A stretch of 64,000 nucleotides of DNA from assembly GCA_023151275.1 (NCBI GenBank), contig JAKLJI010000009.1:20287-84286 (forward strand), written 5' to 3'. The DNA comes from Bacteroidia bacterium (lineage in GTDB: Bacteria; Bacteroidota; Bacteroidia; UKL13-3). Below, piece after piece: positions 1 through 45,600 of the stretch (the stretch's first letter is position 1; every line of letters starts with the position of its first letter). The notes beneath the pieces are model-generated. The model saw only the letters and a program-made list of their open reading frames with translations. It had not been told where the DNA came from and made no database searches. The position numbers and the translations under genes were made by a program.

Positions 1-363
1 ACGTCAAATTTATTCTTATCTACGTACTGCTAATTTTAGTGGCTCCAAAGAAAATAAGCCAATAGTAAGGACTCTTAATATCGAACATCTTCAAAACTAT
101 CACTAATCCGTTCAACAATTTGATTTTAAAATCCACAATTAAATGATCCATCCGCCTTGTTTTGGGCTTCCTTAATGTCCCTCAAATCAGCAAAAACCAA
201 GCCTCTTTCAATCAAACCTTAATTGATTAGTAAGTCTTTTTTTTGGATGGCCTTATTGACTCACAATATCATTGAATATAGAGGTAAATCGCAATTGCAT
301 TGCTCGCAAGGGTCGCTTTTTTTATGCCTTTTCCTATCTTTTCAGCATTCCAATTTTATACCT

Positions 364-798
364 ATGAGTTCAGACACAGTGCGCAATACGCAGGCGAGGC
401 CTTTTGCTCAGGCTTATTTTCATGGTACCAAGGCCAATTTATTGCCGGGTGATTTTATTCGTCCGGGTTATGCTTCCAATTACGGTAAGCAACAAGCTGC
501 TTCGTATATCTTTTTGAGTTCCACTCTGGATGCAGCTATCTGGGGTGCAGAATTGGCTCAAGGGGATGCCGCTCCCCGTATTTATGTGGTGGAAGCTACC
601 GGCGAATTGGAAAATGATCCTGACCTTACCGACAAGAAATTTCCGGGGAATCCTACGCAATCTTTCCGTTCCAAGGAGCCTTTTCGGGTTATTGCTGAAG
701 TGGTAAATTGGACTCCCCATGCAGAAGAATTAGTTCAAAACATGAAGGCACATCTGGCTCGCTTAAAGGAATCGGGAATCGAATCTTTGAATCAATGA
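364..798 (+). CDS. arr: NAD+--rifampin ADP-ribosyltransferase (Arr family)
   Basis: ORF 223..798 trimmed to the ATG at 364 (144 aa). FHGTKANLLPGDFI, YIFLSS, AAIWGAEL, IYVVEATGELENDPDLTDKKFPGNPTQSFRSKEPFRV align by eye over the full length with Arr-2 and mycobacterial Arr. Confidence 0.85.
   Translation: MSSDTVRNTQARPFAQAYFHGTKANLLPGDFIRPGYASNYGKQQAASYIFLSSTLDAAIWGAELAQGDAAPRIYVVEATGELENDPDLTDKKFPGNPTQSFRSKEPFRVIAEVVNWTPHAEELVQNMKAHLARLKESGIESLNQ
703..798 (+). repeat. Direct repeat copy 1 (functional 3-prime end of arr); partner at 2264..2359
   Basis: The 96-nt segment recurs in the same orientation at 2264..2359. The last 66 nt differ at 2 positions, both synonymous. The first 30 nt differ at about 7 positions. 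Confidence 0.9.
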
Positions 799-2624: not shown

Positions 2625-3914
2625 ATGCCTATGAAACCTTTACTTGCTTATTTTTTAGTTGTCCTGAGTTTGTTTCCGCTTCAGTCAAGTGCATGCAGCA
2701 TGTACAAGTACACGGTTGCCGGAAAAACCTGGGTTGGTAACAATGAAGATAGCTGGGGAACCGACCCTATGATTTGGTTTGTGCCGAGAGATTCCAAGAA
2801 ACTTGGTCTGGTTTGTTTGGGCTATCAACGCAAATTCCCCAACCCGGATGGTGCGATGAATTCGGCAGGTCTTGCTTTTGATGCTTTTACCATGCCCCAT
2901 CGCAGCAACCTAGCGCAACGCAATCCTCAAATGGAGGACTTCAGCTACAGCAAACTTCAAACCATTATGCAAAGCTGCAAGACTGTGGAAGAGGTTTATC
3001 ACTACTTTCAAAACAAAAACTTGCAGGTTCTGAATGGGAGTGCACTCTTTCCGGGTAGCATGTTGTTGTTCGTTGACAAAAGTGGAAAATACCTGGTTGT
3101 GGAAGCCCATCAACTAAGCTTTGGAAATGAATCCAATTTTGCGTTGGCAAACTTTAGTTATGCAGATACCAAAGACAGGAGCTTGGTGAATATGGAACGT
3201 TACCGAAAAGGAATTTCGTTTATGAATCGCCATCTACCAGAAGCCACCCTTTCCTATGCAAAATTGCTTTCGGATACCATGTCTGTAAACCGAGAAAAGG
3301 CAGGTGATGGCACTTTATACACGAATTTATTTAATCTTGAAACGGGAGAAATTCACTTGTTTTTCTTCCATGATTTCAGCAAAAGAATAAGCTTCAAACT
3401 GGATGAGGAATTGGCCAAGGGTGCGCATCATCTTGCATTTAGCAATCTTTTTCCTGACAATTCTGGATTCAAGAAGTTTACTTCCTATCATACCCCGCAA
3501 ACACAGCGCTACATGTTCTACCTGCTGCTCTTGCTTGGAATCTTTTTGATTCTGTGCGCAATTCGATTGGCGAGTTATGCTACCAAAGCAAAACCAGTGT
3601 CCTATTCCATTTCCGTTTTGCTGTTTGCCCTATTTGGATTCCTAATGGGCATTTACTGCTTTATTCTGGTTCGCAATCCCGGCATTTGCTATTTCCCATC
3701 GCCTTATGAAGATGCGCATTCAGGGTTCGTAAGCAGTTTTAGTTACCTACCCTACCTAAGCATTCCGGTATGTGTAGCTTCGGCTTTCTTTGTATTCCAA
3801 TTCATCAAAACAAGTCCAATCAAAACAAGCTTCAAAGGGCTGTTGATTGGGAATCAAGTTTGCATTTTTGTGCTTTGCTGCCTTTTTATGTACTGGCGCT
3901 TATTGTCGTTTTGA
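2625..3914 (+). CDS. Ntn cysteine hydrolase (choloylglycine hydrolase / C45-C59-like) fused to a C-terminal multi-TM domain
   Basis: The signal peptide ends in SSAC. CSMYKYTVAGKTWVGNNEDSW resembles the N-terminal nucleophile Cys...GRNxD pattern of CBAH-type hydrolases. The last 140 aa or so contain 4-5 hydrophobic helices. Confidence 0.5.
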   Translation: MPMKPLLAYFLVVLSLFPLQSSACSMYKYTVAGKTWVGNNEDSWGTDPMIWFVPRDSKKLGLVCLGYQRKFPNPDGAMNSAGLAFDAFTMPHRSNLAQRNPQMEDFSYSKLQTIMQSCKTVEEVYHYFQNKNLQVLNGSALFPGSMLLFVDKSGKYLVVEAHQLSFGNESNFALANFSYADTKDRSLVNMERYRKGISFMNRHLPEATLSYAKLLSDTMSVNREKAGDGTLYTNLFNLETGEIHLFFFHDFSKRISFKLDEELAKGAHHLAFSNLFPDNSGFKKFTSYHTPQTQRYMFYLLLLLGIFLILCAIRLASYATKAKPVSYSISVLLFALFGFLMGIYCFILVRNPGICYFPSPYEDAHSGFVSSFSYLPYLSIPVCVASAFFVFQFIKTSPIKTSFKGLLIGNQVCIFVLCCLFMYWRLLSF

Positions 3915-3951: not shown

Positions 3952-3970
3952 AAAATTTGACCATCTATTA

Positions 3971-4056
3971 CTGCCCAAAACGCCTGTGAAATTGGGTGTA
4001 AACTCAGTTTCCCTCACTCAACATAAGGGTACATTATGCCTCGCTCGTGATAAGCC
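3971..4056 (+). repeat. Dispersed intergenic repeat, copy 1 (partner 7086..7168)
   Basis: ctgcccaaaacgcctgtgaaattgggtgtaaactcagtttccc... aligns by eye at roughly three-quarters identity with 7086..7168. The 10-mer gaaattgggt is identical in both. Confidence 0.55.
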
Positions 4057-4909: not shown

Positions 4910-5053
4910 ACGGATTGGGGGTTTGATACATGTTAAACCCCGGAATCAGTAAATGGATTGAAAATAACTATCAGATTTGTGTCATTTCATAACACCTGGA
5001 ATCCTTCAACAAAAGGTTGATATTGTTTCTCAATTTACCTCGAAAATGGATTC

Positions 5054-5758
5054 CTAGGCGTGAAGAATGATATTCCCGTCTTTGATGGTATAGAAATCAG
5101 TGGATGCTGCTTGTCTCGCTTTGAAATAAGCGCTGTAATTTTCTGAAAATGTTCTTCGTTCCGTGATAATGGTATCGTACAATCCACTCAGTCCAATTAG
5201 CATTTCTGAGGCTTCACGGATGGCGAAATTTCCACTGTCGTGACCTGTAACATAATCTGCTAATTTATTCCCGACTACATACTTGCGGAATAGCGGATTC
5301 GCTTTCCGATTGATGAGAATGCGCAGACCACAGGCTTCGGCGATGCTCAAATCCAATACATCATCAAAGAAATAACATACCTCATTTAAGCCCAGTTTAT
5401 GCTGTTCACAAAAGTGATTCAAGGCGTTTATCTTATGCGGAATTTTGTAATACGAAGCATCAAAATGTTCACGCAGGCTAAAGTGAAAAGCCATTTCATT
5501 GCGCTCCCCTGAAATCAATGCTGCCTTTGGCATTTCGCCATGCTGGTGATAGTAGGTATAGCGAAGCAGGTTGGTACCCATTGAATCAGCTTCATTGAAG
5601 GTACTGCTTTTGTTTTCGTTCTTGATCGCATTGTTAAATACACCGTCCCAATCAAATACAAAGGCTTTAATTTGGCTGAGTCGGGATTGAATTTCGGAAG
5701 GGCTTGAAACAAACTCCCCTCCTATTTCTTCAAACAGTTGTTGGATTTCAGTATGCAT
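5054..5758 (-). CDS. HAD-superfamily phosphatase, KdsC-like (candidate Kdo-8-phosphate phosphatase)
   Basis: FDWDGVF (DxDG nucleophile motif), EADSMGTNLLR and FFDDVLDLSIAEACGL resemble the KdsC motifs. Start is set at the ATG at 5758 because 5759..5786 is a terminator hairpin. The TTG at 5791 is an alternative start. Confidence 0.55.
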   Translation of the reverse strand: MHTEIQQLFEEIGGEFVSSPSEIQSRLSQIKAFVFDWDGVFNNAIKNENKSSTFNEADSMGTNLLRYTYYHQHGEMPKAALISGERNEMAFHFSLREHFDASYYKIPHKINALNHFCEQHKLGLNEVCYFFDDVLDLSIAEACGLRILINRKANPLFRKYVVGNKLADYVTGHDSGNFAIREASEMLIGLSGLYDTIITERRTFSENYSAYFKARQAASTDFYTIKDGNIILHA

Positions 5759-5786
5759 AAAAAAGGCCGCTTCTTGAGAAGCGGCC
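5759..5786 (-). terminator. Rho-independent terminator/attenuator between the aldolase-CBS gene and the kdsC-like gene
   Basis: On the minus strand ggccgcttc-tcaa-gaagcggcc (9-bp GC-rich stem) is followed by TTTTTT, which runs directly into the ATG at 5758. Confidence 0.6.
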
Positions 5787-5806
5787 TGCAAGTTAGGCGA
5801 AATATC

Positions 5807-6817
5807 TTAGTCTTCGAGGTCCTGAATATCGAGCATACCCACCGGCTTGCCATTTTCAGTTACCAGAATGGTATCTACTTTGGTTGATTTAAACAGTCCG
5901 GCTGCATCGTTCAACAAGGCCGAAGATTCAATGGATACGGGAGTATTGTAAGTAAAGTCGCCCATGGATTTGCTCAACACATCGCGGCCTTCAGCCTGGA
6001 TTTTACGACGTAAGTCGCCATCGGTGAATACCCCTTTCAAAGAGCCGTCTGCATTCACAACCGTGATGGCTCCAAATCCGTATTCAGTCATTTTCACAAT
6101 GCCTTCTGCCAAAGAAACACCTGCGTCAATCACAGGATTGGTTCCATTCATGGCTTCTTTCACGCGAACAGTCATCAAACGGGTATCGCGAATGAATTGG
6201 TCTGTACCTACTGTGGTGAAATGATTTTCGGTTAACTGTTTTAAGATTTTCAATGGAACGGTAATGGTATGCACACCCAGGTTTAAGGCGTTGCGCACGT
6301 GCTCCATGGTACGAACAGAAGAGAACATTACTTTGGTATCGTACCCGTAATGGTCAACTGCACTTACAATCTGATTCACCAAATCAAGGGCATCATGACC
6401 TTGATCTTGCAAGCGACCCACCAATGGACAAACATAAGTAGCACCTGCATGCATGGCCATATAGGCTTGTTGCAAGGTATAAACCAAGTGTACATTTACC
6501 AGGTAGCCTTTGCTACGCAGTAAACGACAAGCACGCACACCTTCCAAAGAAACCGGAATTTTGAAAACGGTTTTCTTAGGGTCGAGGCCCAAAGCGAGTT
6601 GGCGTTCTGCTTCAGCCAACACTTCTTCGGCAGTATCTCCTAAAGCTTCAATCTGAAGCACAGGAACGATTTTTGAAAGTTTAACAATCATGGCATCGAT
6701 ATCGGTGATGCCTTCACGCTGCATGAAAGTAGGCGTGGTTGTAAGTCCGTTGAGGAAGCCCAGTTTAAAGCCTTCTTCAATTTCTTTGAGGTTGGCTGAG
6801 TCTAAGTATAATTCCAT
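5807..6817 (-). CDS. Fusion protein: fructose-6-phosphate-aldolase/TalC-type class I aldolase (N) + KdsD/GutQ-type CBS pair (C)
   Basis: The N-terminal 215 aa or so (MELYLDSANLKEI...GLTTTPT...FKIPVS..G..A...L...G...NVHLVY...A..A..AGA.YV.P.VGR) match the FSA/TalC pattern. The C-terminal 120 aa contain GVFTDGDLRR...GMLDIQDL, the hallmark of the arabinose-5-P isomerase CBS module. Confidence 0.75.
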   Translation of the reverse strand: MELYLDSANLKEIEEGFKLGFLNGLTTTPTFMQREGITDIDAMIVKLSKIVPVLQIEALGDTAEEVLAEAERQLALGLDPKKTVFKIPVSLEGVRACRLLRSKGYLVNVHLVYTLQQAYMAMHAGATYVCPLVGRLQDQGHDALDLVNQIVSAVDHYGYDTKVMFSSVRTMEHVRNALNLGVHTITVPLKILKQLTENHFTTVGTDQFIRDTRLMTVRVKEAMNGTNPVIDAGVSLAEGIVKMTEYGFGAITVVNADGSLKGVFTDGDLRRKIQAEGRDVLSKSMGDFTYNTPVSIESSALLNDAAGLFKSTKVDTILVTENGKPVGMLDIQDLED

Positions 6818-6849
6818 GTGAATTGATTAATTCGGTTTTTTACAGGGGG

Positions 6850-6878
6850 CAAATGTAGGAGATTTTGCGCATTTTCAA
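6850..6878 (-). promoter_or_regulatory. Candidate Bacteroidota-type promoter for the aldolase-CBS gene
   Basis: The minus strand reads TTG-N18-TACATTTG, which matches the -33 TTG / -7 TAnnTTTG consensus. It lies about 33 nt upstream of the ATG at 6817. Confidence 0.3.
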
Positions 6879-7085
6879 TCCATGTCATCTAATGGAAGTC
6901 CGGAGGCCTTGTCTCGGGGCTAAAAACCACATCTAATGTCATCTTACTTTTGGCTATGAGCTGATTACAACTTAGGCATTGAGATTGGAGCCTGTCACCT
7001 GGTTGAAATTCAAAAAGTCATTCTGTTTGATTTGAAATCATCGTTCAAGATTTCACCATGTGGCTGAAGGATTGAAACTCAATTC

Positions 7086-7168
7086 CTGCCCAGAAGCCTG
7101 AGAAATTGGGTATAAATTCGGTTTCTCCAACTCATCACACCTGGGCATTATCCCTTGCCAATAAAACC
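7086..7168 (+). repeat. Dispersed intergenic repeat, copy 2 (partner 3971..4056)
   Basis: ctgcccagaagcctgagaaattgggtataaattcggtttctcc... has the same orientation as copy 1. It lies in the 434-nt spacer between kdsA and the aldolase-CBS gene. Confidence 0.55.
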
Positions 7169-7200
7169 GTCAATCATGCAATCAACCCATTGCCCTAAAC

Positions 7201-7236
7201 AAAAAAGAGAGAACCAAGCGGCTCTCTCTTTTTGTT
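7201..7236 (-). terminator. Rho-independent terminator after kdsA
   Basis: On the minus strand agagagagcc-gctt-ggttctctct (10 bp, one G-U) is followed by TTTTTT, 16 nt after the kdsA stop. Confidence 0.7.
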
Positions 7237-7251
7237 TAATTCATGCTAAAA

Positions 7252-8082
7252 TTACTTTCTGTATTTCACTTCAACCTGATGCAATTCAATCAATGGTTTG
7301 AGGAATTCTTCTAGGTCGTACACGCAAAGTTGTGAAGCTGCATCGCAAAGCGCTTTTGCAGGCTCAGGGTGTGTTTCGATGAAAACACCATCTACACCGG
7401 ATGCAATACCTGCGCGACTCAATACCGGCAAAAACTCACGTGCTCCGCCGTTGGGGTCGGCACTTGGAGTTCCGTATTTACGCACGCAATGGGTAACATC
7501 AAACACTACAGGATAGCCAATATTTCTTAAGTGGTAAAAGCTTCGCGGATCAACAATTAAATCGTTGTACCCAAAGGTAAATCCACGCTCAGTAAGAATT
7601 ACCTGGTCGTTACCGGATTCCACACATTTCGCAACCGGGTGTTTCATGTTTTCAGGAGCAAGGAATTGTCCGTGCTTGATGTTTACCACTTTACCTGTTT
7701 TTGCTGCTGCCACCATCAAGGTGCTTTGCATGCAGAGGTAAGCCGGAATTTGAATCACATCAACCACCTCACCCGCTGCTGTTGCCTGCTCGGGGTAATG
7801 CACATCGGTAAGGATAGGAAATCCAAATTGCTCACGAATTTTAGCAAGCAGTTTTACTCCTTTATCCAAACCCGGGCCATCGTAATATTTAAGGCTTGAG
7901 CGATTGTCTTTTTGAAAGGAGGATTTGTAAATCACTTTTATTTTCAAGCGTTCCGAAACCTCTTTCAGCATTTCAGCTGTTTTGAGCATGATGCTCTCGT
8001 CTTCGATAACGCAGGGCCCAGAAATCAGAAACAATTCATCTGAGCCACATTCAATATCTCCAACTTTTACAATTTTTGTCAT
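7252..8082 (-). CDS. kdsA: 3-deoxy-8-phosphooctulonate (Kdo-8-P) synthase, Cys-type (metal-dependent class)
   Basis: Full-length by-eye alignment to E. coli KdsA (KSSFQKDNRSS, GPGL, TDVH, DVIQIPA, FDVTH, GVFIETHP). It has GPCVIED where E. coli has GGMNVLE. Confidence 0.9.
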   Translation of the reverse strand: MTKIVKVGDIECGSDELFLISGPCVIEDESIMLKTAEMLKEVSERLKIKVIYKSSFQKDNRSSLKYYDGPGLDKGVKLLAKIREQFGFPILTDVHYPEQATAAGEVVDVIQIPAYLCMQSTLMVAAAKTGKVVNIKHGQFLAPENMKHPVAKCVESGNDQVILTERGFTFGYNDLIVDPRSFYHLRNIGYPVVFDVTHCVRKYGTPSADPNGGAREFLPVLSRAGIASGVDGVFIETHPEPAKALCDAASQLCVYDLEEFLKPLIELHQVEVKYRK

Positions 8083-8092
8083 GGTGTATTAA

Positions 8093-9175
8093 TTACATTC
8101 TTCTGAATAAACCTTCAATAAATTCAATGCTGATTTTCTCTTGCCAATCGGTTCCAATGGCATGGTTCCACATGTGGTGGAGGTTATACGCCACATGGGC
8201 CATGGCATTGATTTCAGCATCGCTCCAGTTTTTACTTAATCCGGTTGGTAGTACGATGTTATGCTTCTTCAACATGGTATTGAATTCAGCAACGCCTTCC
8301 GGGTAAAAATCACCCAAATGTTGGAAGGCCAAACAGTTTGCATAGCAATGCTTTTCGCCAAAAATCTTACTCAAGCCATAACTTAATGCATGACAAATAC
8401 CCACTTCCGAGTAGGTTAAACTTAGGCCACCCATTAAGGATGCCACCATCAATTTGTCATCGTTCTCCGGATTTTGACCAGCGTTTTCACCCAAGTAAAT
8501 ATCGCGACAAAGTTTGAGCGATTGTTCGCCATAGGCCATGGAATAGGCATTGTTCAAAATTCCATCGCGGCTTTCTATGCAATGGATGAAGGTATCCATA
8601 CCTGTATAAAACCATTTATCAACAGGTACGGTTGCCGTCAACTCCGAATCAAGAATAACCTGATCGAAAATGGTCCATTCGCATTTCAAACCAAGTTTCT
8701 TCTCGGGACCGGTTAAAACAGCAGTCATTGAACATTCTGCGCCGGTACCAGAGATAGTAGGAACTCCCACGTGGTAAACGCCAGGCTTCTTGATGAGGTT
8801 AAGTCCCTGGTAGTTTTGAGAAGGACCCTCATTGGTAAGCATAAGGGCAGTTGCCTTGGCAATGTCCATAATTGAACCACCGCCAATCCCAATTAAGCCG
8901 GAAGGCAAGCCTTTTGTAGCCAGGATTTCATCCCTCAATTGGTCAATTTGCTCGGTTGTAGGTTCATGTGGATCTACATCAATAAAATAGACCAAATCTT
9001 CAGGCTTTGCAGGAATTCGTTTTTCGAGGTCTTTGCCTTTGAAGTAATTATCAACCACAAACACCATAAAGCCTTGGTTGAGGCTACGTTTGGGCTGAAG
9101 GATTTCATCGAGTTGATTGAAGCTACCGCGACCGAAAACAGTTTTTTCGATGCTTTTAAAATTCTTGTGGATCAT
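8093..9175 (-). CDS. Iron-containing alcohol dehydrogenase family; candidate Kdo 8-oxidase (KdnB-like)
   Basis: GIGGGSIMDIAKA and His-rich CHALSYG motifs of the Fe-ADH fold are present. The gene sits 10 nt upstream of kdsA and 2 nt downstream of the aminotransferase. The KdnB assignment is by context only. Confidence 0.55.
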   Translation of the reverse strand: MIHKNFKSIEKTVFGRGSFNQLDEILQPKRSLNQGFMVFVVDNYFKGKDLEKRIPAKPEDLVYFIDVDPHEPTTEQIDQLRDEILATKGLPSGLIGIGGGSIMDIAKATALMLTNEGPSQNYQGLNLIKKPGVYHVGVPTISGTGAECSMTAVLTGPEKKLGLKCEWTIFDQVILDSELTATVPVDKWFYTGMDTFIHCIESRDGILNNAYSMAYGEQSLKLCRDIYLGENAGQNPENDDKLMVASLMGGLSLTYSEVGICHALSYGLSKIFGEKHCYANCLAFQHLGDFYPEGVAEFNTMLKKHNIVLPTGLSKNWSDAEINAMAHVAYNLHHMWNHAIGTDWQEKISIEFIEGLFRRM

Positions 9176-9177
9176 AG

Positions 9178-10383
9178 TTATGCGGTAACAGTTTGCGACT
9201 CTTTTATAGAGGCAGCAATTTTAGAAGTAAGTTCAGCAAGTTCAGCATCTGTCCAGCTGGCGCGGATACCAAACGAAATCAAACGGCCAATGGTTTCCTG
9301 CGTTTTTGGGATATTCAAGTTTGCATAATCCTGAGGTGCACCAAGGAGTTGCACGTTTGTTTTGGCAGCTACTCTACCCTCTTTGATATGATCCCATTGG
9401 TTGATGAAATGGTACATGTTGGTAAACCAGTAATTGAAACCGCCTACTCCATTTTTGTTCAAAGCAGCTACAACAGCCTGTGCAGATTGTGTATCCGGCA
9501 TCAGGATATTCAGGAAAGTGGCTGAGTCACCTGAAGGATCTGGAATGGTAGCAAAAGAAACGCCCGGGATTTTTCCCAATTCCTCCATCATGAACTTTTT
9601 ATGCTTGTTGTTGGCTTCGCGAATGGCAGGCACGCGGCGGGTTTGAGCCAAACCCACAGCAGCATGCAATTCTGAAATACGGAAATTGAAACCGAGCACC
9701 GGATGATTTTCCATACCGCGGTTGTTACCAATATGGTCGTGACCATGGTCTGCGAAGTTATCAGCCAGTTTGTAAGCAGTTTCGTCGTTGGTAACCATCA
9801 CACCACCTTCACCGGCAGTTGCAATTTTGAAGAAATCGAAGCTGTAGCAACCTGTTTTACCCCAAAGTCCGGTAGAAACCCCTTTGTAAGAAGCAGCCAT
9901 AGCCTGGCCTGCATCTTCAACCAAAACGAGATTGTGTTCATTGACAACAGCCATTATCTCATCCATATTTGCCATTTGACCGCACATGTGAACCAGGAGA
10001 ACGGCTTTGGTTTTTGGAGTGATTGCATTGCGAATTCCTTCTGCACTTAAACACAGGGTTTCATCTATTTCGGCGAATACAGGCAAAGCACCGGCAAAGA
10101 TTACTGCTTCAACAGAAGCTATGTATGTAAAAGGAGGAACAATTACCTCATCGCCTGCGCCAATTCCGGCGGCCGCCAAGGCACAAGAAACAGCAGTTGA
10201 ACCGGAGGAAACGGCATGGGCATATTTTGCGCCAACCAGTTTCGCCACTTCGGCCTCAAACTCGCGCGCTTTCCAGATATTGTTGCGCTGCGCATCGTGG
10301 TTATAACGAAACAGAATTCCTGTTTCCAATACATCATTGATTTCTTTGCGCTCTTCAGCGCCAAAATATTCGGTTCCTGGCAT
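9178..10383 (-). CDS. DegT/DnrJ/EryC1/StrS-family PLP aminotransferase; candidate Kdo8N transaminase (KdnA-like)
   Basis: SSGSTA, DEVIVPPFTY and SFDFFKIATAGEGG (PLP-lysine motif) are present. Start is set at the ATG at 10383 (MPGTEYFG); the TTG at 10401 is an alternative. The KdnA assignment is by context. Confidence 0.55.
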   Translation of the reverse strand: MPGTEYFGAEERKEINDVLETGILFRYNHDAQRNNIWKAREFEAEVAKLVGAKYAHAVSSGSTAVSCALAAAGIGAGDEVIVPPFTYIASVEAVIFAGALPVFAEIDETLCLSAEGIRNAITPKTKAVLLVHMCGQMANMDEIMAVVNEHNLVLVEDAGQAMAASYKGVSTGLWGKTGCYSFDFFKIATAGEGGVMVTNDETAYKLADNFADHGHDHIGNNRGMENHPVLGFNFRISELHAAVGLAQTRRVPAIREANNKHKKFMMEELGKIPGVSFATIPDPSGDSATFLNILMPDTQSAQAVVAALNKNGVGGFNYWFTNMYHFINQWDHIKEGRVAAKTNVQLLGAPQDYANLNIPKTQETIGRLISFGIRASWTDAELAELTSKIAASIKESQTVTA

Positions 10384-10593
10384 AATGCTAAATTTATGCA
10401 AAAGTACAAAAAGGCAATGGAAAAGCGGGAAACCTGTTTTATTCCCAAATCCGACAATAAATTCCCGTTTTGAAACGAATCCTTCAGTAGTTCAAACTGA
10501 AAAAAAGAATACAACATGTTAAAAATCAATATACTATAAAAAAAAAATTAATCAAGGAACAGGATTTGCACGTATCAATCAAAACCAAAAATC

Positions 10594-11013: not shown

Positions 11014-11156
11014 ATTTGAAACCATGGAAACAATAAAAGGCATTTGGGAGACAATTAAACAACAATTATCGCAACCTGATAATCAAAACAAGCAATTGGC
11101 ATTAATTCCAGTTAGAAGGTAAAGATATTTAGTACCTTAGCGAACTATTTTCCTTT

Positions 11157-13075: not shown

Positions 13076-13107
13076 AAAAAAAGGAGCTCAATCGGGCTCC
13101 TTTTTTT
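13076..13107. terminator. Bidirectional terminator between the LruC gene and selU
   Basis: aaaaaaaggagc-tcaatcgg-gctccttttttt. The T tract overlaps the selU stop codon. Confidence 0.7.
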
Positions 13108-14107
13108 ATAAGTGAATCAGCTGTTGCAACACCTCATCAAAACTACCCTCCAAAATGAGTTTCTGCTCCAAAGTAGAATCATTCAAGGCACGCACGTAAA
13201 CTTTATCGTAGTAAAATAATACTTCGTCTAACCAGCCATCAAAATTGTTGTTTTCTAAGTCAGAGATCGCTTTTCGCAGGCGCAAATCACCTAATTTCTT
13301 GGCAATTTTTTGAGTGGATTGAATCAATTGCTCCTTAGGGAAAACACCATACTCATTTCTAATTCGTGCAAACCTTTCTTCCTTTGGAATTCTAACAACC
13401 ACCAGAGGAGACTGTCTCATTTGCTTGAAGAAAACATCTGGAACTTGAAGTTTACCAATCATAGAAGCCTCATCTTCCAACCAAAGAGGTTCAGCCACAT
13501 TGATTTTAGACAGCAACAAAGCTAGGTTATTTTCAAATTGTTCCTGTGTGGGCTGAGGTTCCATACCAATTGCACCAAAAGCGGAGCCGCGGTGGGAAGC
13601 CAATTCCTCAAGGTCGATGATTTGTTTTCCAGCATTCGCCAAGCCTTTCAGCATTTCGGTTTTACCTGAACCTGTAAAGCCACCCAGCACCCGTAAATTG
13701 TACGATTGCAGGAAAGTATTTAATACCAAGTTGCGGAAAGTTTTATAACCGCCCTCAATGATGGTTATATCTAAACCGGCATTGCTAAGCAATTGGGCCA
13801 TTATCCGGCTGCGTAAACCACCACGCCAGCAATGTAAGACAAGCGGCTTTCCCTCTGATAGTGAAATTGCCCCTTCAATCAATTGTCTGAACCGAGGTCC
13901 AACCAATTCATAACCCAACAAGACGGCAGCTTGGTTTCCTTCTTTTTTGTAGGTGGTTCCAACTAACACGCGCTCCTCATTTCTTAACAAGGGAAGATTG
14001 ACAGCCCCGGGAATATGGCCTTGGGCAAATTCTCCCTCACTCCGCACATCCACTAAAACATGGGCCTGAGAAGAAATCAGCGAAAAATTAATACCAATAG
14101 TTTTCAT
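13106..14107 (-). CDS. selU: tRNA 2-selenouridine(34) synthase
   Basis: N-terminal rhodanese domain (VDVRSEGEFAQGHIPGAVNLPLL, HCWRGGLRS) plus the P-loop GGFTGSGKTE. Length and architecture match MnmH/YbbB. Confidence 0.85.
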   Translation of the reverse strand: MKTIGINFSLISSQAHVLVDVRSEGEFAQGHIPGAVNLPLLRNEERVLVGTTYKKEGNQAAVLLGYELVGPRFRQLIEGAISLSEGKPLVLHCWRGGLRSRIMAQLLSNAGLDITIIEGGYKTFRNLVLNTFLQSYNLRVLGGFTGSGKTEMLKGLANAGKQIIDLEELASHRGSAFGAIGMEPQPTQEQFENNLALLLSKINVAEPLWLEDEASMIGKLQVPDVFFKQMRQSPLVVVRIPKEERFARIRNEYGVFPKEQLIQSTQKIAKKLGDLRLRKAISDLENNNFDGWLDEVLFYYDKVYVRALNDSTLEQKLILEGSFDEVLQQLIHL

Positions 14108-16817: not shown

Positions 16818-17169
16818 AGGAAGCTATGGCTTTTGGCTATAGCCATGGCTCGGTAAATTTACAATTGATAAAACTTCTGAAAGCCATCACCTATAGCTAA
16901 GGCCAAAATTCTGTAAGCCGCCTCCTGTGGGTTAAAATTTGGACTTTTTCTACAATCATGACACCCCTAACGGGGTTAGATACGCCCATTCCATCCGAAT
17001 TGAAACTTCTGGATTACTGAAAATTTTCAGAGCCGAATGGGGACCTAAAAACTGGGGCCAATTCAAAGAACCATTTTGCATTTAAGCTAATGCAATTATT
17101 GAGATTTAGAAATGAACTTCCCACTGAAAATTCACTAAATTCGTAGTTCTTTCACTCTGTTTTGTGCGC

Positions 17170-18030
17170 ATGAGAGCAAAGTATCTAAATCCGTTTACCG
17201 ATTTCGGTTTCAAAAAAATATTTGGTGAAGAAGCCAGTAAGCCTCTGCTCATCGATTTTTTGAATGCACTTTTGCCTCTAAACGACCTAATTGTTGATTT
17301 AACCTTTAAAAACAACGAACAACTTGGTAATACCGACCTGGATAGGAAAGCCATTTACGATATTTATTGTGAGAACCAGAAAGGCGAAAAGTTCATTGTA
17401 GAACTTCAAAAAGCAAAACAGAATTTCTTTAAGGAAAGAACGATTTATTATTCCACCTTTCCAATCCGGGAACAAGCCGAAAAAGGGGAATGGAACTACA
17501 ACTTGAAAGCTGTTTACTGCATTGGAATATTGGATTTTACCTTCGGCGACTACGAAAACGAGCCGGATAAAAGCCAGGTAATGCATACCATCAAGCTTAA
17601 AAATCAAAACGGCAAAACCTTTTATGAAAAGCTAACCTATATTTATCTGGAAATGCCCAATTTTTCACTTGGTGAAAACCAGTTAAAATCACGGCTGGAT
17701 AAATGGCTTTATTTCATCAAGAATTTGGAAGATTTTCAAAGCATCCCAAAGATTTTTTCGGATGAAGTTTTTCACCAGGCATTTGAAAAAGCAGAATTGG
17801 CTAAATTCGGGCAAGCTGAATTAGCAAGTTATGAAAACAGCCTTAAAGTGTACAGGGATTTGAAAGGCGTTATTGACACTGCTTTTGATGAAGGAAAATT
17901 GGAAGGAAAAATGGAAGGGTTAATTGAAGGCAAACTTGAAATGGCCCGAGTTATGAAAGCTGCTGGAGAATCCGCAGAAAAAATTGCCAAATACACCGGA
18001 CTTTCGATGGATGAACTCGAAAAGCTTTAG
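17170..18030 (+). CDS. Rpn-family recombination-promoting nuclease / PD-(D/E)XK putative transposase
   Basis: KYLNPFTDFGFKKIFG...DIYCENQKGEKFIVELQKA is the signature N-terminus and nuclease core of this family. The C-terminus is a helical repeat tail. Confidence 0.8.
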   Translation: MRAKYLNPFTDFGFKKIFGEEASKPLLIDFLNALLPLNDLIVDLTFKNNEQLGNTDLDRKAIYDIYCENQKGEKFIVELQKAKQNFFKERTIYYSTFPIREQAEKGEWNYNLKAVYCIGILDFTFGDYENEPDKSQVMHTIKLKNQNGKTFYEKLTYIYLEMPNFSLGENQLKSRLDKWLYFIKNLEDFQSIPKIFSDEVFHQAFEKAELAKFGQAELASYENSLKVYRDLKGVIDTAFDEGKLEGKMEGLIEGKLEMARVMKAAGESAEKIAKYTGLSMDELEKL

Positions 18031-31625: not shown

Positions 31626-32777
31626 ATGAACCTGCGATTGAAGCAATGGATTGACGGAAGCATTGGCCGGATTTTGGTGGCAATTTTTGTAGTGATTGTC
31701 AGAGGTCTGGGCTTGCTCCTCAAACGAAACCACAGCTTGCAACCTGAGCCAAAAAATATTTTAGTTATTAAGATGCTTGGACTTGGCAGCGTTTTTATGG
31801 CAATGGATAGCCTGTATAGTTTGAAAAAACGCTATCCCAATACTCGGTTTATTTTGATGTGCGGACAAGGCGTTGCAGCTGGTATTGAACCCCTGAAATT
31901 TTTTGATGAAATCTGGGTGCATAACGACAAATCCATTGGCAAACTGGTAAGCTCCGGATTTGCGTTGCTGATTAAAACCTGGAAACAAAAGGGACTTTGG
32001 GTGATGGACTTGGAAGTGTACTCGGTTTTAACCACTTTGTTTTCCGCTTGGACAAGCGCAAGAAATCGCTTTGGTTTTCAACTAAACAAAGTTCATTTCA
32101 GAAACTACCTAAATACCCATAACATTTATTTCAACCAATTTATTACGGTTTCTAGAAACTACGAAAACCTGGTGAAAGATATGGGGGTTAGGGAAATTGA
32201 GACTTTTCAAACACCCCAATTTTCAAACCAAAAAAAGGGGAATTATATCGCCATCAACAACACGTGCAGTGAATTGGGAGGTGATTTGAGAAAAATGGAT
32301 TCGGGGCAACTAAAAGCAATTGTGAACGAACTGGTGAACCAACAAAAACTCCAGGTTGCCTTTACCGGGGCACCTTCCGATTATGAAAGTTTGGAAAAGC
32401 TCATCAAAAACGAACTTGCAGAATTTGAAGGCAAGGTGATTAACATCGCCGGTAAATTTAGTTTCACAAACTACTACAGCTTTCTTTCGGAATCGTGTTT
32501 AGCCATGATAAGCATTGATTCAGCACCACTTCATATTGCCATGAAACTGGGTTTACCAACGCTTAGCGTTTGGGGCCCCATCAAACCGGAACAACGTATT
32601 GAAACCAATCAAAGCAAGCACTTGGTGGTTTACAAAGCTCAGGCCTGTAGTCCTTGCATTCACTTATCGGATATTGTTCCCTGTGGCGGAAACAACATTT
32701 GCATGAAAGAAATACCTACCGAATTGCTCATTCAAAAAACCCGGGAATTATGCGGAATCGTTACCTCATTGCATTGA
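31626..32777 (+). CDS. Glycosyltransferase family 9 (heptosyltransferase-like)
   Basis: ILVIKMLGLGSVFMA near the N-terminus and SIDSAPLHIAMKLGLPTLSVWGP near the C-terminus are typical of GT9. Confidence 0.7.
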   Translation: MNLRLKQWIDGSIGRILVAIFVVIVRGLGLLLKRNHSLQPEPKNILVIKMLGLGSVFMAMDSLYSLKKRYPNTRFILMCGQGVAAGIEPLKFFDEIWVHNDKSIGKLVSSGFALLIKTWKQKGLWVMDLEVYSVLTTLFSAWTSARNRFGFQLNKVHFRNYLNTHNIYFNQFITVSRNYENLVKDMGVREIETFQTPQFSNQKKGNYIAINNTCSELGGDLRKMDSGQLKAIVNELVNQQKLQVAFTGAPSDYESLEKLIKNELAEFEGKVINIAGKFSFTNYYSFLSESCLAMISIDSAPLHIAMKLGLPTLSVWGPIKPEQRIETNQSKHLVVYKAQACSPCIHLSDIVPCGGNNICMKEIPTELLIQKTRELCGIVTSLH

Positions 32778-41570: not shown

Positions 41571-42635
41571 CTAAAAGCCTGGCGCCACTTTCGATTTATT
41601 AAAAACCGGACAAATCATTCTACCTCCGGAACCTTTTCCATTCAAGAAACTTCCTCCCGGACAATGGGCTTCCTTGCTTCGAAAAATCAAACCTATTTCA
41701 AAGGTATTTCCGGCATTGGTAAAGCTGCTATTTCCCAAAGAAGCTTCATAACTCAGGTAAAAATTCAACTGCTCACTGTGGTTGTATTGAATGGCAAATG
41801 TTGGAGAAACCAATTGAGCTTGAGGATGGAAGGAAGAACGAAGTCCAATACCCATACCCAACTCATCCATAAAAAAATAGTTAACCCGCATCATGCCATG
41901 GTTGGAAGCAAGCTGCCTATCGTACCGTCCGCTAAATTCCCAACTTTGCGCAATAGTTGCCGGATTTTTCCTTTTGATAAAGCTAAAATGCGCGGTGTAC
42001 CTTCGGGGAAGTATATAATTGCTTAAAATGCCAATATCCGAGTTATTGGTAATGTGATGAACAGCAAAACCCAAATTGAATGCACTCTTCGAACCATTTT
42101 TCCCATAAGCAAATCGGGTCAAATCAAAGCCGGCAGAAATATCCGGACTTAAGGATGAATTGATACGAGTTCCATCCATGGCACTGGGGTAAATGCTCCC
42201 AAAAATGGGATGAATCTGATCTGAAAAAACAAATTCATTCCAATCAATTGTTTGTTGAACAACACCAAATTGAAATCCGGCATTGGCTGTCCATTCACGG
42301 TTCAGAATTCGGCGAATTCCAAGTTGCAAGGCCGCATGATTGGTTTGAAAAAAGTTGTTGCCCTGTGTTTCATTTCCAGCAAGCATTCCCAATGCAAATA
42401 CGGAATTACACAAGCTGTAATCTGCCGCAAAAGAACTGTGATAACTTGGACCATGCAAAGGCTGAAACAAATTTCGGTGCATCAAACTGCTTCTGATTAT
42501 TCCGGAACCATCTCTACCAATCAAAGCAGGATTTAGATAGGCCTTGTGGGCATAACTATTGGTGTACAGAACATCCTGCGCCAAAACAGAAATGCACATC
42601 AACACGAAAAGTATAGCATTTAAAATTCCCTTCAT
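41571..42635 (-). CDS. T9SS membrane protein, PorP/SprF family
   Basis: Signal peptide followed by Y..NPALIG, which is typical of PorP/SprF. It is beta-rich and about 350 aa. The start overlaps the stop of the upstream adhesin (ATGA). Confidence 0.8.
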   Translation of the reverse strand: MKGILNAILFVLMCISVLAQDVLYTNSYAHKAYLNPALIGRDGSGIIRSSLMHRNLFQPLHGPSYHSSFAADYSLCNSVFALGMLAGNETQGNNFFQTNHAALQLGIRRILNREWTANAGFQFGVVQQTIDWNEFVFSDQIHPIFGSIYPSAMDGTRINSSLSPDISAGFDLTRFAYGKNGSKSAFNLGFAVHHITNNSDIGILSNYILPRRYTAHFSFIKRKNPATIAQSWEFSGRYDRQLASNHGMMRVNYFFMDELGMGIGLRSSFHPQAQLVSPTFAIQYNHSEQLNFYLSYEASLGNSSFTNAGNTFEIGLIFRSKEAHCPGGSFLNGKGSGGRMICPVFNKSKVAPGF

Positions 42636-45600
42636 CGTATCAATGTTAATGTGCCACGTTTGGATAAATTTTTGCCCTTATCGCCTTGTCCCAGCCACTG
42701 TTTTCCACTTGTGAATTCCGCCTCAATCATCCAAATATACGTTCCCTGAACGGCATCCTTACCATTCAAATCAACCCCATTCCAACCCTTGGCAGGAGTT
42801 CCATTTTCCAACTCCTGACTTTCCCAAACCAACTCTCCCCACTTGTTGTAAATCCAAATATGGTAATTCTTCAATTCCATGCCTGCTGGTTTAAATTCGC
42901 GCACAGCTTCAGTTCCATAAGAAGGTGCAAAGGCATTGGGAACATATAACCCTTCCCAATACGGAGGCAAGCAAACGGTGTCTGTGGCAAAAGTATCGCA
43001 GTTGTTCGGACTAATAACTTTCAACTCTACCGGAAAACAACCGCTATCTGCTTCAGCGTATCTAAACAACAATTCTTTTCCTAATCCGGTTGCTCCATTT
43101 CCAAAACGCCATTCATACCTAAAATCGTTATTGGCCAATACCTTGAATTGTACTTCACGGAAAGGTTGCTTGGTGATTTGCAATTCGTGACTAAAGGTGA
43201 TTGACTTCTTTTCATCAATTTTTATGGGTTTGAAAAACGTAAAACTATCCCGGCAAACCACACCTGATTTTACTACCAAACTCACATAATAAACTCCGCT
43301 TTGGGTATAGGTATGACTTGGTTCTCGTTGAGTTGATGTATCACCATCTCCAAAATACCAGAAAAACTCCTTGCCTCCGATACTGGTGTTTTTGAATTTA
43401 ATCTCATACGGTAAGCAGCCGCTCGAATCACTAAATTCGAATGAAGCAAAAGGCTGCTCCATAATCTCGAAGGTTTTGCTGAAGGTATCTCGGCATCCAA
43501 ATGCGTTCACAACACGCAACTGAACCGGATACTTTCCTATTCCCTGATAAAATTTCCTGTAAGTGGCGGCAGTGCTAGTTTCTCCATTACCAAAATCCCA
43601 CAAATAGGCATCGGCATTGCTTCCGGTAAAGGCAAAATCAACCCAAACAGGACCATAACAAGTGTCTTCCGGGCTCATGCTAAAGGATGCCATAGGTTGA
43701 GGCCACACCCTAAACTGAAGAGATGCAGAGTCTTTGCAACCAAAAGGTGTTTCAGCCCATGATTGAATGGTATAAACTCCAGGTTTAGTAAAAGCATAAC
43801 CATTGATTTGATTTCCTGTGTAGGTGCTTCCATCGCCCAAATCCCAGCGAATAACCGGCGAACCTTTGGCTTCAGCCCTGAAATTGGCCAACTGACCGAG
43901 ACAAATTGAATTGGTATCGGTAAATATTCTTAAATGAGGCAGTGAATCAACCTCGAGCGTATCCAAAATCTCGTTGCTGCAACCACTAAAAAATGCACTT
44001 AGCCGAACTAATATGGGCATTCGCCCTGCTCTGGTGTATTTGTGCAAAGGATTGAACAAACTGGATGAATCTCCATCGCCAAAAAACCACTTTATGCTTC
44101 CCGTATCAATAAGGTTGCTGGTAAATTGCAAGGACGTTCCTTCGCATTGATTTGAACTTGGCAATTGAATACTGAACAAAGGTTTTGGGTCAACGCGAAT
44201 AAACGTAACCGCAGTATCAAAATAACATTGGTTACTGATGTATTGCACAACCTTAAACAAACCCGGATTGGAGAAGGTATGCACAGGATTGCGCTGATTG
44301 GAGGTTCCGCCGTCCCCAAAATCCCAACTCACATAGTCAGCTCCCCGACTTTTATCTCCAAAATTCACAGTTAAACTCTGGCATCCCAATCTGGAACTTA
44401 CATTAAAGTCAGCTTTCAATAAATTTGGAGTTACCGTAAGCGTTCGCTGCACACTGTCAGAACCGCACATATTTGTAACCCTTAACTTAAGTAAATACCG
44501 GCTAATTGAATCCGATGTGAAATAGCTAATGGGTTGGCCGTTTGGCTCAACCAAATTGCTGGTGCGCCCTTTGTCTAAATCCCAGAAATACTGCTCAACA
44601 GATCCTTGAGAAATATTAGTCAAATACAATTCAGCAGGTGAACAAGCAGAATCCATATTCATGGTAAAACTTGCTTTTGGCTTGTCCTTTACTCGAACCA
44701 AATTGATTTTTTGTAAGGTATCACGACAACCAGAAATTGATTGAACAATCAACCTTACAGAATAACTGGTATCTTGGTTCAGCAGTCCAGCATAAGTATT
44801 TCCAACCGTATCACTTGCAACCAAAGCTTGATTTCCATCTCCAAAATTCCAGAAAAATGTTCCCGGCTTTCGGAAAACGGATTGCTCTCTAAAAACAAAC
44901 CGGGCTGGGCGACACAAACTATCTGATAAACTCACAAAATCAATCGTGGGAGTTGGCAAAGAGCGTATTTCTTTTACAAGGGTATCGAAGCAGCCTTCCG
45001 CATTTTGCGCAATTAATTGAATCTGATAGACACTGTCTAGTAATCCACTGTGAACTGGCAGTTGGATTTGCGGCACAATAGCCAATGAATTATCGAATCC
45101 AACAAATGGGTCATCAGAACTCCAGGAATAGCCTAAAGCAAACTGACTGTTGTTTTGAACGGCCAATTTTGTGCCGGAACAGGCGCTATCAGACAAAAAA
45201 CCAAAGCTTACCAATGGTCGTCCGGGTTGACGAAGGGTTTTGCTAATGCTATCCACACAACCAAAAGTAGAGGTAGCAATCAGGCGAACTTCATGTACCA
45301 AACTTTGATTGCTTTTAAAATCATTCAAGGAAAGGGAGGTTTGAAAACTCGCGGTATCGTTTTGAATAAAGCCTGCATTTCCAACCAACATCCATTTATT
45401 GCCATCAGGCTTCATGGCAGGCAAAGGAAGTCCGCCAGCAAACAGCAATGCTGATTCTCCATAACACAGAACAGAATCACTAATTGCAAAATCAGGCTTA
45501 GGCAATGGTTTGATTACTACATTTTTTTGGATTGAATCCGAGCAGCCCGTACCTATCAACGTAATCTTCAATTGTACCAAAACACTGGTGTCCGTAGTCC

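Follow-up and report, generated by a model that had tools for sequence, protein, structure and literature searches.

Counterparts of KdnA and KdnB joined to Kdo-synthesis genes point to a probable 8-amino-Kdo (Kdo8N) pathway in a Bacteroidota genome

Background

Kdo is a core sugar of lipopolysaccharide (LPS), and in Shewanella it is turned into 8-amino-Kdo (Kdo8N) by KdnA and KdnB. The Kdo8N pathway formed by these two enzymes in S. oneidensis was reportedly described by Gattis and colleagues in 2013. KdnA is encoded by SO_2476 (PDB 5k8b, EC 2.6.1.109) and KdnB by SO_2477 (PDB 5k8c, EC 1.1.3.48), the mechanism of the latter involving bound NAD(H) and Zn. The S. oneidensis gene order is kdnA-kdnB-kdsB; kdnA precedes kdnB in the same way in the locus described here.

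Expression of the Shewanella genes in E. coli is sufficient for the formation of Kdo8N2-lipid A, and the conversion of Kdo precedes its incorporation (review, PMC4402001); therefore, ordinary KdsB and WaaA tolerate Kdo8N. No report of Kdo8N outside Shewanella was found in the literature searched.

Locus layout and transcription units

The window, that is, the whole stretch of DNA analysed, comprises 64,000 nt from an uncultured Bacteroidia bacterium (UKL13-3; assembly GCA_023151275.1, contig JAKLJI010000009.1, positions 20,287-84,286, forward strand). Five genes occupy its minus strand between 5054 and 10383, with intergenic gaps of 2 nt (DegT aminotransferase to Fe-ADH gene), 10 nt (Fe-ADH gene to kdsA) and 434 nt (kdsA to the fusion gene); the coordinates, shared strand and gaps given in the initial annotation proved exact. 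The features, in order of transcription, are as follows.

10399..10406, minus strand: TACTTTTG, match to the -7 promoter consensus, 15 nt upstream of the kdnA ATG, read from the sequence (motif match only)
9178..10383, minus strand: kdnA orthologue, predicted PLP-dependent 8-amino-3,8-dideoxy-manno-octulosonate (Kdo8N) transaminase, 401 aa (Pfam, PDB, conserved residues)
8093..9175, minus strand: kdnB orthologue, predicted group III (Fe-ADH fold) Kdo 8-oxidase, 360 aa (Pfam, PDB, metal ligands)
7252..8082, minus strand: kdsA, Kdo-8-phosphate synthase of the Cys (metal-dependent) type, 276 aa (NCBIfam, GPCVIE motif)
7195..7239, minus strand: intrinsic terminator after kdsA, a hairpin of about 20 bp between A- and U-runs (-23.7 kcal/mol, z = -6.3)
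6850..6857, minus strand: TACATTTG, match to the -7 promoter consensus, 32 nt upstream of the fusion-gene ATG, read from the sequence (motif match only)
5807..6817, minus strand: Tal/FSA-fold barrel fused to a KdsD-type CBS pair (2xCBS), 336 aa (Pfam TAL_FSA and CBS)
5764..5787, minus strand: GC-rich hairpin of 10 bp, then U6, with its end 5 nt short of the phosphatase start codon (-19.7 kcal/mol, z = -3.7)
5054..5758, minus strand: divergent HAD phosphatase of the KdsC family, probably acting on Kdo-8-P, 234 aa (sequence, AF2 model, Foldseek)

The region is best explained as encoding a Kdo8N pathway in two Kdo-pathway transcription units, a terminator-ended kdnA-kdnB-kdsA unit and a second unit composed of the fusion and phosphatase genes, and we regard this reading as a whole as probable. 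The terminator previously noted 3' of kdsA is real, its folding energy having been reached by none of 200 shuffles, while the hairpin at 5764..5787 could act as an attenuator or a partial terminator. The two promoter-like sites fit TAnnTTTG, the -7 consensus of Bacteroidota promoters, and are given as motif matches only. Searches with E. coli proteins (tblastn) found kdsB, waaA or a SIS-type kdsD nowhere in the 64-kb window, as the initial annotation had stated, and the same queries do pick up kdsB and waaA in related loci.

The kdnA and kdnB orthologues

The kdnA product is read from an ATG that independent gene calls also use, the TTG at 10401 proposed by the ORF tool being an upstream extension. 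It includes CYSFDFFKIATAGEGG, and its residues 44-336 match Pfam DegT_DnrJ_EryC1 with 260 bits. Alignment with S. oneidensis KdnA runs end to end (residues 7-396; 458.7 bits, E = 1.8e-136) at 52% identity across 389 aa, whereas the next PDB family scores 165 bits and the best nucleotide-sugar aminotransferase gives E = 3.4e-47. A set of 59 sequences that includes S. oneidensis KdnA shows no variation in the Schiff-base lysine K186, the PLP-binding D157, a DHGHDHxGxxRGxExH motif or a Trp/His-rich C-terminal region. This C-terminal region lies outside the Pfam DegT match and most other PDB alignments, yet it is conserved with Shewanella.

Similarly, the kdnB product carries GIGGGS, matches Pfam Fe-ADH and ADH_Fe_C, and is 54% identical to S. 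oneidensis KdnB over its full length (426 bits, E = 1.2e-126), whereas the next non-Shewanella PDB family reaches 84 bits and the best ordinary alcohol dehydrogenase E = 7.5e-23. The GGGS motif (98-101) and the metal ligands D194, H198, H262 and H276 are invariant in 82 sequences. Both proteins thus side with KdnA and KdnB, not with nucleotide-sugar aminotransferases or ordinary dehydrogenases. The earlier identification of the DegT and Fe-ADH genes as kdnA and kdnB is therefore supported; it had been said to rest on context, but the 458- and 426-bit matches are decisive on sequence alone.

KdnB relatives occur in at least 587 GTDB species, and Bacteroidota account for all of the best 80, among them the cultured Runella and Spirosoma. 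The impression of rarity in the initial annotation fits the chemistry but not the genes, which are common and are already labelled by database pipelines, JGI naming these KdnB-like proteins Kdo 8-oxidase.

Conserved gene neighbourhood

Neighbourhoods were counted at 80 species-level Bacteroidota loci chosen by KdnB, with flanking sequence of up to 10 kb per side, shorter where contigs were short. The gene directly upstream of kdnB is kdnA at 47/80 and the one directly downstream is kdsA at 38/80, so the kdnA-kdnB-kdsA arrangement is not due to chance. All five genes occur together at 27 of the 80, and about 15 hold a complete Kdo cluster (waaA..kdnA-kdnB-kdsA-fusion-kdsC-kdsB); within the same sequence limits kdnA was not found at 19.

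Kdo-synthesis genes and the aldolase-CBS fusion

The kdsA product scores above the cutoffs of both NCBIfam NF003543, the KDO8P synthase equivalog (347.9 bits, cutoff 242), and TIGR01362 (331 bits, cutoff 314), and the GPCVIE motif in its translation places it in the Cys type.

The phosphatase gene reported in the initial annotation is present, though probably not with the start assigned to it at 5791. That TTG falls within a hairpin, and the ATG at 5758 is the most likely start, in agreement with NCBI records and with homologues of 233-237 aa. The protein scores only 37.9 bits against NCBIfam KdsC (cutoff 208). However, its PDB sequence matches above E = 0.1 all belong to the KdsC/YrbI or KDN-9-P phosphatase family (best E = 1.4e-5), and Foldseek with its AF2 model (pLDDT 91.5) returned KdsC/YrbI-family structures as the first 42 matches, at a target-normalised TM-score of about 0.8. 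The HAD motifs DWDGV and FDDVLD are invariant, and relatives are labelled KDO 8-P phosphatase by JGI.

The fusion is a more novel item than the kdn pair. It holds the CBS pair of KdsD without the SIS domain, the CBS half being nearest to the A5P-isomerase CBS pairs 4o9k, 3k2v and 3fna and to the NCBIfam kpsF and KdsD models. FsaA interconverts arabinose-5-P with glycolaldehyde and GAP (PMC9947464). The fusion is probably a Kdo-operon enzyme that supplies arabinose-5-phosphate in place of KdsD.

Proposed pathway and alternative readings

In the proposed pathway, KdsA would condense arabinose-5-phosphate and PEP to Kdo-8-P, from which the KdsC-like phosphatase would release free Kdo. KdnB, with its group III alcohol-dehydrogenase fold, metal site and bound NAD, would then oxidize the C8 hydroxyl of Kdo to an aldehyde, and KdnA, a PLP enzyme, would transaminate this to 8-amino-3,8-dideoxy-D-manno-octulosonate (Kdo8N). 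KdsB and WaaA, presumably encoded elsewhere in the genome, would attach Kdo8N to lipid A. The substrates of the two enzymes and the presence of Kdo8N in Bacteroidota LPS are thus predicted from the genes. Since clear KdnA and KdnB counterparts joined to Kdo-synthesis genes are found in Bacteroidota, Kdo8N is probably widespread, although it has been regarded as unique to Shewanella.

It is unlikely that the pair, while homologous to KdnA and KdnB, acts on another substrate (another ulosonic acid or lipid A-attached Kdo) or leads to a further-modified product such as N-acylated Kdo8N, leaving the LPS without the free-amine Kdo8N of Shewanella. Identity is only 52-54%, and the large KdnB-like family, with 97 cluster representatives at E <= 1e-30, grades continuously into other Fe-ADH subfamilies. 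In a neighbour-joining tree the Bacteroidota KdnB clade has 100% bootstrap, whereas the crown group joining it to the Shewanella enzyme has a moderate 69% and also holds paralogues without the His ligands; the close relatives P0245 and P0248 have lost the metal ligands. However, both lineages share, without variation, the catalytic residues and the C-terminal region specific to KdnA, the pair sits within Kdo biosynthesis operons and not other sugar operons, and no gene for an acyltransferase or for further sugar modification accompanies it consistently across the relatives' loci. It is highly improbable that the two genes next to kdsA are chance neighbours, coding for a nucleotide-sugar aminotransferase and an alcohol or glycerol dehydrogenase of ordinary kinds with no role in Kdo modification. 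Both superfamilies are broad, the NCBI name of the dehydrogenase is the generic 'iron-containing alcohol dehydrogenase family protein', and the pair's NCBIfam equivalog matches all lie far under their cutoffs; this reading is nevertheless effectively refuted by PDB margins of about 290-340 bits over the next characterised family and by an adjacency kept in dozens of species among the 80 loci.

For the fusion gene only, an unlikely alternative is that it encodes an ordinary central-metabolic transaldolase or fructose-6-phosphate aldolase, lying beside the Kdo genes but outside the pathway. The Pfam TAL_FSA match (121 bits), the short transaldolases that head the Foldseek matches, and the JGI names 'transaldolase' or 'TalC/MipB family', with similar NCBI naming, agree with it, as does a TIGR00875 score of 159 bits, although this is under the cutoff of 246. 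Against it, four catalytic positions that do not vary among the reference sequences (three transaldolases and E. coli FSA) carry other residues (N28T, T110H, S130C, F132L) in 32/32 family members examined, and the CBS pair belongs to the KdsD/KpsF type. Moreover, at 80 loci selected independently, solely by the fusion protein, kdsA immediately precedes the fusion gene in 72 and a KdsC-like phosphatase gene immediately follows it in 67.

Comparison with known systems

The locus resembles that of S. oneidensis in having the same two folds, the conserved Schiff-base Lys, PLP-binding Asp, KdnA C-terminal region, GGGS and D/H/H/H metal site, and a pair attached to a Kdo-pathway gene. Unlike the gammaproteobacterial S. 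oneidensis, the host belongs to Bacteroidota, where the pathway is predicted from the genes, and the partner gene is kdsA in place of kdsB, with relatives holding the full waaA..kdsB cluster.

Like the E. coli KdsD-KdsA-KdsC-KdsB pathway, the locus has an unambiguous kdsA equivalog and a phosphatase with HAD motifs and the KdsC fold, and in relatives kdsB and waaA lie in the cluster as well. In contrast to E. coli, the slot of the SIS-domain KdsD is filled by a Tal/FSA barrel with KdsD's CBS pair, and the phosphatase, very divergent from KdsC, is extended at its C-terminus by about 45 aa.

The fusion shares its barrel fold (TM about 0.85-0.9) with the short decameric transaldolases of B. subtilis (3r8r), T. 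maritima (1vpx) and T. acidophilum (3s0c) and with E. coli FsaA (1l6w), and retains Asp6, Glu57 (the Glu60 equivalent), the Schiff-base Lys86, Asn108, the phosphate-binding Arg135, Ser167 and Arg169. It differs from them in the invariant replacements of Asn28, Thr110, Ser130 and Phe/Tyr132 by Thr, His, Cys and Leu, respectively, and in its CBS pair and Kdo-operon context.

Organization of the Kdo gene cluster

The Kdo genes of the window form a run of five open reading frames, all on the minus strand, with the following features in and around them:

9178..10383, minus strand: DegT aminotransferase gene, predicted kdnA (Pfam PF01041, 260 bits)
8093..9175, minus strand: iron-containing alcohol dehydrogenase (Fe-ADH) gene, predicted kdnB (Pfam Fe-ADH and ADH_Fe_C)
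7252..8082, minus strand: kdsA (NCBIfam equivalog cutoffs passed)
5807..6817, minus strand: Tal/FSA and CBS fusion gene (Pfam/NCBIfam)
5054..5758, minus strand: KdsC-like HAD phosphatase gene (corrected ATG start, 234 aa)
10399-10406: match to the Bacteroidota -7 consensus, 5' of kdnA (motif match only)
6850-6857: match to the Bacteroidota -7 consensus, 5' of the fusion gene (motif match only)
5764..5787, minus strand: 10-bp GC-rich hairpin with U6 (-19.7 kcal/mol, z = -3.7)

The open reading frames are where the initial annotation had placed them; its spacings of 2 nt (kdnA to kdnB), 10 nt (kdnB to kdsA) and 434 nt (kdsA to the fusion gene) are exact, and Pfam and NCBIfam bear out its gene families. 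The kdsA product carries a GPCVIE motif and is of the Cys (metal-dependent) type, as had been described. It scored above the curated equivalog cutoffs for Kdo-8-P synthase, with 347.9 bits against NF003543 (cutoff 242) and 331.1 bits against TIGR01362 (cutoff 314). Agreement extends to the terminator 3' of kdsA, which is a strong intrinsic one by folding (-23.7 kcal/mol, z = -6.3), and to the lack of kdsB, waaA and SIS-type kdsD in the window, as judged by tblastn with E. coli proteins. The HAD phosphatase gene, annotated as 5054..5791, was correctly located, but its start was not; translation almost certainly begins at the ATG at 5758, in agreement with NCBI records and with homologues of 233-237 aa. 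The hairpin at 5764..5787 lies between the fusion stop codon and this ATG, ending 5 nt short of it, and the TTG start at 5791 chosen by gene callers falls within the hairpin and U6 element. This element resembles an intra-operon terminator and may attenuate expression of the phosphatase.

The Bacteroidota -7 promoter consensus is TAnnTTTG. A sigma-70 promoter and terminator scan did not rise above background and failed to pick up the kdsA terminator, and an Rfam search over 4000-12000 yielded nothing credible, with two sub-threshold chance matches. A conserved RNA or small gene hidden in the 434-nt spacer was rejected because the spacer is not conserved among relatives, where its length ranges from about 30 to 2000 nt. 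Within it, an 81-nt stretch (6911..6990) is 75% identical to 3964..4044, near the 3' end of the open reading frame at 2625..3914, and may be a small dispersed repeat.

Several other features of the window were recorded. An open reading frame at 223..798 (plus strand) strongly matches the domain of rifampin ADP-ribosyltransferase (Arr-ms, E = 2e-44); it is a gene of resistance type in a Bacteroidota MAG of environmental origin. Among the window open reading frames scanned, no further gene of LPS-core type was seen besides a glycosyltransferase family 9 (heptosyltransferase-like) gene at 31626..32777 (plus strand). The window also holds a tRNA 2-selenouridine synthase gene, mnmH (13106..14107, minus strand; 350 bits, above cutoff), a PD-(D/E)XK family transposase gene (17164..18030, plus strand), two PHO4 phosphate transporter genes with a phosphate-selective porin gene (18377-25735) and a very large open reading frame of 2264 aa (42632..49426, minus strand).

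Identity of the putative KdnA and KdnB

Comparison with the characterized Shewanella oneidensis enzymes, suggested in the initial annotation, favoured the predicted assignment for both proteins. In a PDB sequence search, the window DegT protein matched the KdnA structure 5k8b with 458.7 bits (E = 1.8e-136) over residues 7-396; the next family, perosamine synthase, reached 165 bits over residues 47-262 only. By BLASTP, it shares 52% identity with S. oneidensis KdnA over 389 aa. An alignment of 59 sequences, comprising Bacteroidota orthologues and the Shewanella protein, revealed an invariant Schiff-base Lys186 (SFDxxK) and PLP-binding Asp157, as expected for a DegT fold-type I PLP aminotransferase such as KdnA (EC 2.6.1.109). 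The motif DHGHDHxGxxRGxExH does not vary either, nor does a C-terminal segment rich in Trp and His that lies past the end of the Pfam DegT match (residues 44-336). The window protein is thus closer to KdnA than to other characterized DegT enzymes over its full length, C-terminal region included.

The window Fe-ADH matched the KdnB structure 5k8c end-to-end with 426 bits, as against 84 bits for the best ordinary alcohol dehydrogenase, and is 54% identical to S. oneidensis KdnB over 358 aa (BLASTP). It also matched PDB entry 3rf7, which we take to be a Shewanella structural-genomics protein, with 412 bits. Among 82 aligned sequences (Bacteroidota orthologues and the Shewanella protein), the GGGS motif (G98-S101) and the metal ligands D194, H198, H262 and H276 are invariant. 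These residues are conserved with 5k8c and point to a group III alcohol dehydrogenase fold with the Asp/His/His/His metal site of KdnB (EC 1.1.3.48). A 2016 structure paper by Zachman-Brockmeyer reportedly describes NAD(H) and Zn as tightly bound in KdnB.

In a scan of 1.84 billion cluster representatives, 97 reached E <= 1e-30, and the KdnB-like family passes gradually into other Fe-ADHs. A bootstrapped neighbour-joining tree was built from numpy distances, and bipartition supports were used because midpoint rooting was distorted by two long-branch paralogues (P0367 and P0248). The Bacteroidota KdnB clade received 100% bootstrap support, and the crown group joining it to S. oneidensis KdnB only 69%. 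The phylogeny proposed in the initial annotation therefore came out as predicted in its grouping, the window protein falling with characterized KdnB and not with the other Fe-ADH subfamilies, but clade resolution was only moderate. Orthology of KdnA and KdnB is thus well supported by similarity and synteny but only moderately by the tree, since the 69% crown group also holds paralogues lacking His ligands. These paralogues (P0245 and P0248) are 39-44% identical to the window KdnB, with H198 replaced by Q or R and H262 by R or Q, and probably have either no catalytic activity or a different one.

Distribution and genomic context of kdnA and kdnB

At E <= 1e-30, over 7,500 proteins in the databases match KdnB; the top 120 share 75% identity or more with the window protein. 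The NCBI label for these relatives is only 'iron-containing alcohol dehydrogenase family protein'; KO-based pipelines already label kdn genes in Bacteroidota. A scan with one genome per GTDB species returned at least 587 KdnB relatives, of which the best 80 are all from Bacteroidota and span Chitinophagaceae, Cyclobacteriaceae, Spirosomataceae, Sphingobacteriaceae, Saprospiraceae and Flavobacteriales. Cultured carriers among these 80 are Runella defluvii DSM 17976, Runella aurantiaca YX9 and Spirosoma flavum KCTC 52490. The window comes from a MAG of an uncultured member of the Bacteroidota, and exact matches occur only in metagenome assemblies and one NCBI contig.

In the window, kdnB is encoded beside kdnA and a Kdo-pathway gene, kdsA. 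Among the 80 best KdnB loci, kdnA is present in 61 and all five genes in 27. The three-gene block that had been put forward for a survey is conserved, with kdnA directly upstream of kdnB in 47 of the 80 loci and kdsA directly downstream in 38. About 15 loci carry the fuller order waaA ... kdnA-kdnB-kdsA-fusion-kdsC-like-kdsB (tblastn with E. coli proteins), an example being L042, a related locus, at 7632-14860. Because relatives carry this fuller order, the kdn pair sits in what looks like a housekeeping Kdo operon and not in an accessory paralogue set. In R. defluvii (locus L025, 9475-9969), and likewise in locus L028, kdnA and kdnB are separated by a DUF6169 gene; the Runella pair does not adjoin kdsA and is followed instead by an RsgA GTPase gene.

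The transaldolase-CBS fusion and the KdsC-like phosphatase

The 336-aa fusion protein combines domains of two enzyme families. At its N terminus is a barrel domain of the short-transaldolase type, with Foldseek TM values of 0.85-0.9, which matches Bacillus subtilis 3r8r with 134 bits and E. coli FSA with 62 bits. Its CBS pair is of the arabinose-5-phosphate-isomerase type: the best PDB CBS matches are 4o9k, 3k2v and 3fna, residues 215-329 match positions 153-267 of the kpsF model TIGR00393, and the NCBIfam KdsD model also matches.

The C-terminal CBS pair is of the KpsF type, but the SIS catalytic domain of KdsD/KpsF is missing: the CBS pair (residues 200-322) is the only part of E. coli KdsD that finds a match, and neither the window nor any of 160 related loci has a match to residues 1-200. 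As for a transaldolase or fructose-6-phosphate aldolase, the TalC/MipB constellation (Asp6, Asn28, Glu/Gln60, Lys86, Thr110, Ser/Ala130 and Phe/Tyr132 in Thermoplasma acidophilum numbering) is incomplete. The Schiff-base Lys86, Asp6, Glu57, Asn108, the phosphate-binding Arg135, Ser167 and Arg169 are retained. In all 32 family members compared (63-100% identity), Asn28 is replaced by Thr, Thr110 by His, Ser/Ala130 by Cys and Phe/Tyr132 by Leu; the references (three transaldolases and E. coli FSA) all have Asn28 and Thr110. The fusion also scored 159 bits against TIGR00875, below the cutoff of 246.

The context of the fusion gene was studied in metagenome contigs scanned with the fusion alone, which avoids selection through KdnB. 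At least 555 relatives were found; fusion loci include L018 (11971-12972), L042 (12433-13437) and L090-L169. In the best 80, the gene directly upstream is kdsA in 72, the one directly downstream is KdsC-like in 67, and kdsA is itself preceded by kdsB in 26. Only 19 have kdnA nearby and only 14 kdnB, and the SIS half of KdsD occurs in none of the 80 with flanks of up to 10 kb per side. Since this context holds in loci picked by the fusion alone, the order kdsB-kdsA-fusion-kdsC-like forms a conserved operon of its own.

Within this operon, every Kdo-pathway step has a canonical gene except the supply of arabinose-5-phosphate, and the fusion is a candidate non-homologous supplier. A Tal-fold enzyme in this role is chemically plausible, because E. 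coli FSA interconverts arabinose-5-phosphate with glycolaldehyde and GAP, two substrates from which a variant of TalB also makes ribose-5-phosphate (PMC9947464). The fusion might act by aldol addition of glycolaldehyde and GAP to give arabinose-5-phosphate, by retro-aldol/aldol C2-epimerization of ribose-5-phosphate, or by a new isomerase mechanism that relies on His110 and Cys130, both specific to this family. It is a serious, if tentative, possibility that in many Bacteroidota the first committed step of Kdo synthesis is carried out by a remodelled transaldolase-fold Schiff-base enzyme, one that has taken over the regulatory CBS pair of KdsD, in place of the SIS-domain isomerase KdsD; an essential LPS enzyme would then have been replaced by a non-homologous one. 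KdsD, a proposed antibacterial target, is assumed to occur in all Kdo producers; the fusion may represent a new, non-homologous route to arabinose-5-phosphate. A natural aldolase forming this sugar phosphate would also be of interest to synthetic glycolaldehyde-assimilation work (PMC9947464). Literature searches found no paper describing the fusion or a transaldolase-CBS role in Kdo synthesis. This unrecognized enzyme in a Kdo operon is considered the most novel part of the analysis.

The phosphatase falls well below the curated KdsC models, scoring 37.9 bits against NF007019 (cutoff 208) and 23.9 bits against TIGR01670 (cutoff 107); its resemblance to the family stands. All PDB sequence matches above the E = 0.1 level belong to the KdsC/YrbI or KDN-9-P phosphatase family, and the first 42 Foldseek matches of its AF2 model (pLDDT 91.5) are all of the KdsC/YrbI family (target-normalized TM about 0.8). 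The model shows the C0-type HAD fold of KdsC with DxDxV and DDxxD motifs, seen as the invariant D36-W-D38-G-V and D132-D133-x-x-D136 (DDVLD). Aligned homologues are 231-256 aa long, and about 45 extra C-terminal residues (approximately 190-234), modelled as two helices and a beta-hairpin, are conserved. KdsC structures, of about 160-195 residues, lack this extension.

Predicted Kdo8N pathway and its significance

In Shewanella, free Kdo is oxidized at C8 by KdnB and then transaminated by KdnA, all before incorporation (Gattis et al., 2013, as summarized in PMC4402001). We infer the substrates and LPS product of the Bacteroidota pathway on the same lines: KdsA and the KdsC-type phosphatase would provide free Kdo, the predicted Kdo 8-oxidase KdnB would oxidize its C8, and the predicted KdnA would transaminate 8-oxo-Kdo with glutamate to give 8-amino-Kdo (Kdo8N), which KdsB and WaaA, encoded elsewhere, would then use. 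The window pair probably makes Kdo8N. Somewhat less firmly, Kdo8N is likely to be a frequent and probably constitutive modification of the inner LPS core in hundreds of environmental Bacteroidota species of the Chitinophagales, Cytophagales, Sphingobacteriales, Flavobacteriales and Saprospiraceae.

Hundreds of Bacteroidota species have clear kdnA/kdnB orthologues within their Kdo operons, which predicts that a positively charged inner-core sugar is common in the envelopes of freshwater, soil and marine Bacteroidota. If true, consequences would follow for cationic-peptide resistance, outer-membrane packing and Kdo-based metabolic labelling. Cultured Runella and Spirosoma strains carry the genes, so the prediction can be tested directly.

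Searches of the literature for Kdo8N, kdnA/kdnB, the enzyme names and KEGG KOs returned nothing beyond Shewanella except an Fe-ADH classification paper and incidental pipeline annotations, and no retrieved paper reports Kdo8N in Bacteroidota. A review has called Kdo8N exclusive to Shewanella (PMC4402001). The Shewanella genes suffice for production of Kdo8N2-lipid A in E. coli, and Shewanella without kdn genes is more sensitive to polymyxin and bile salts (PMC4402001). The enzymes, the pathway and the product are known from Shewanella.
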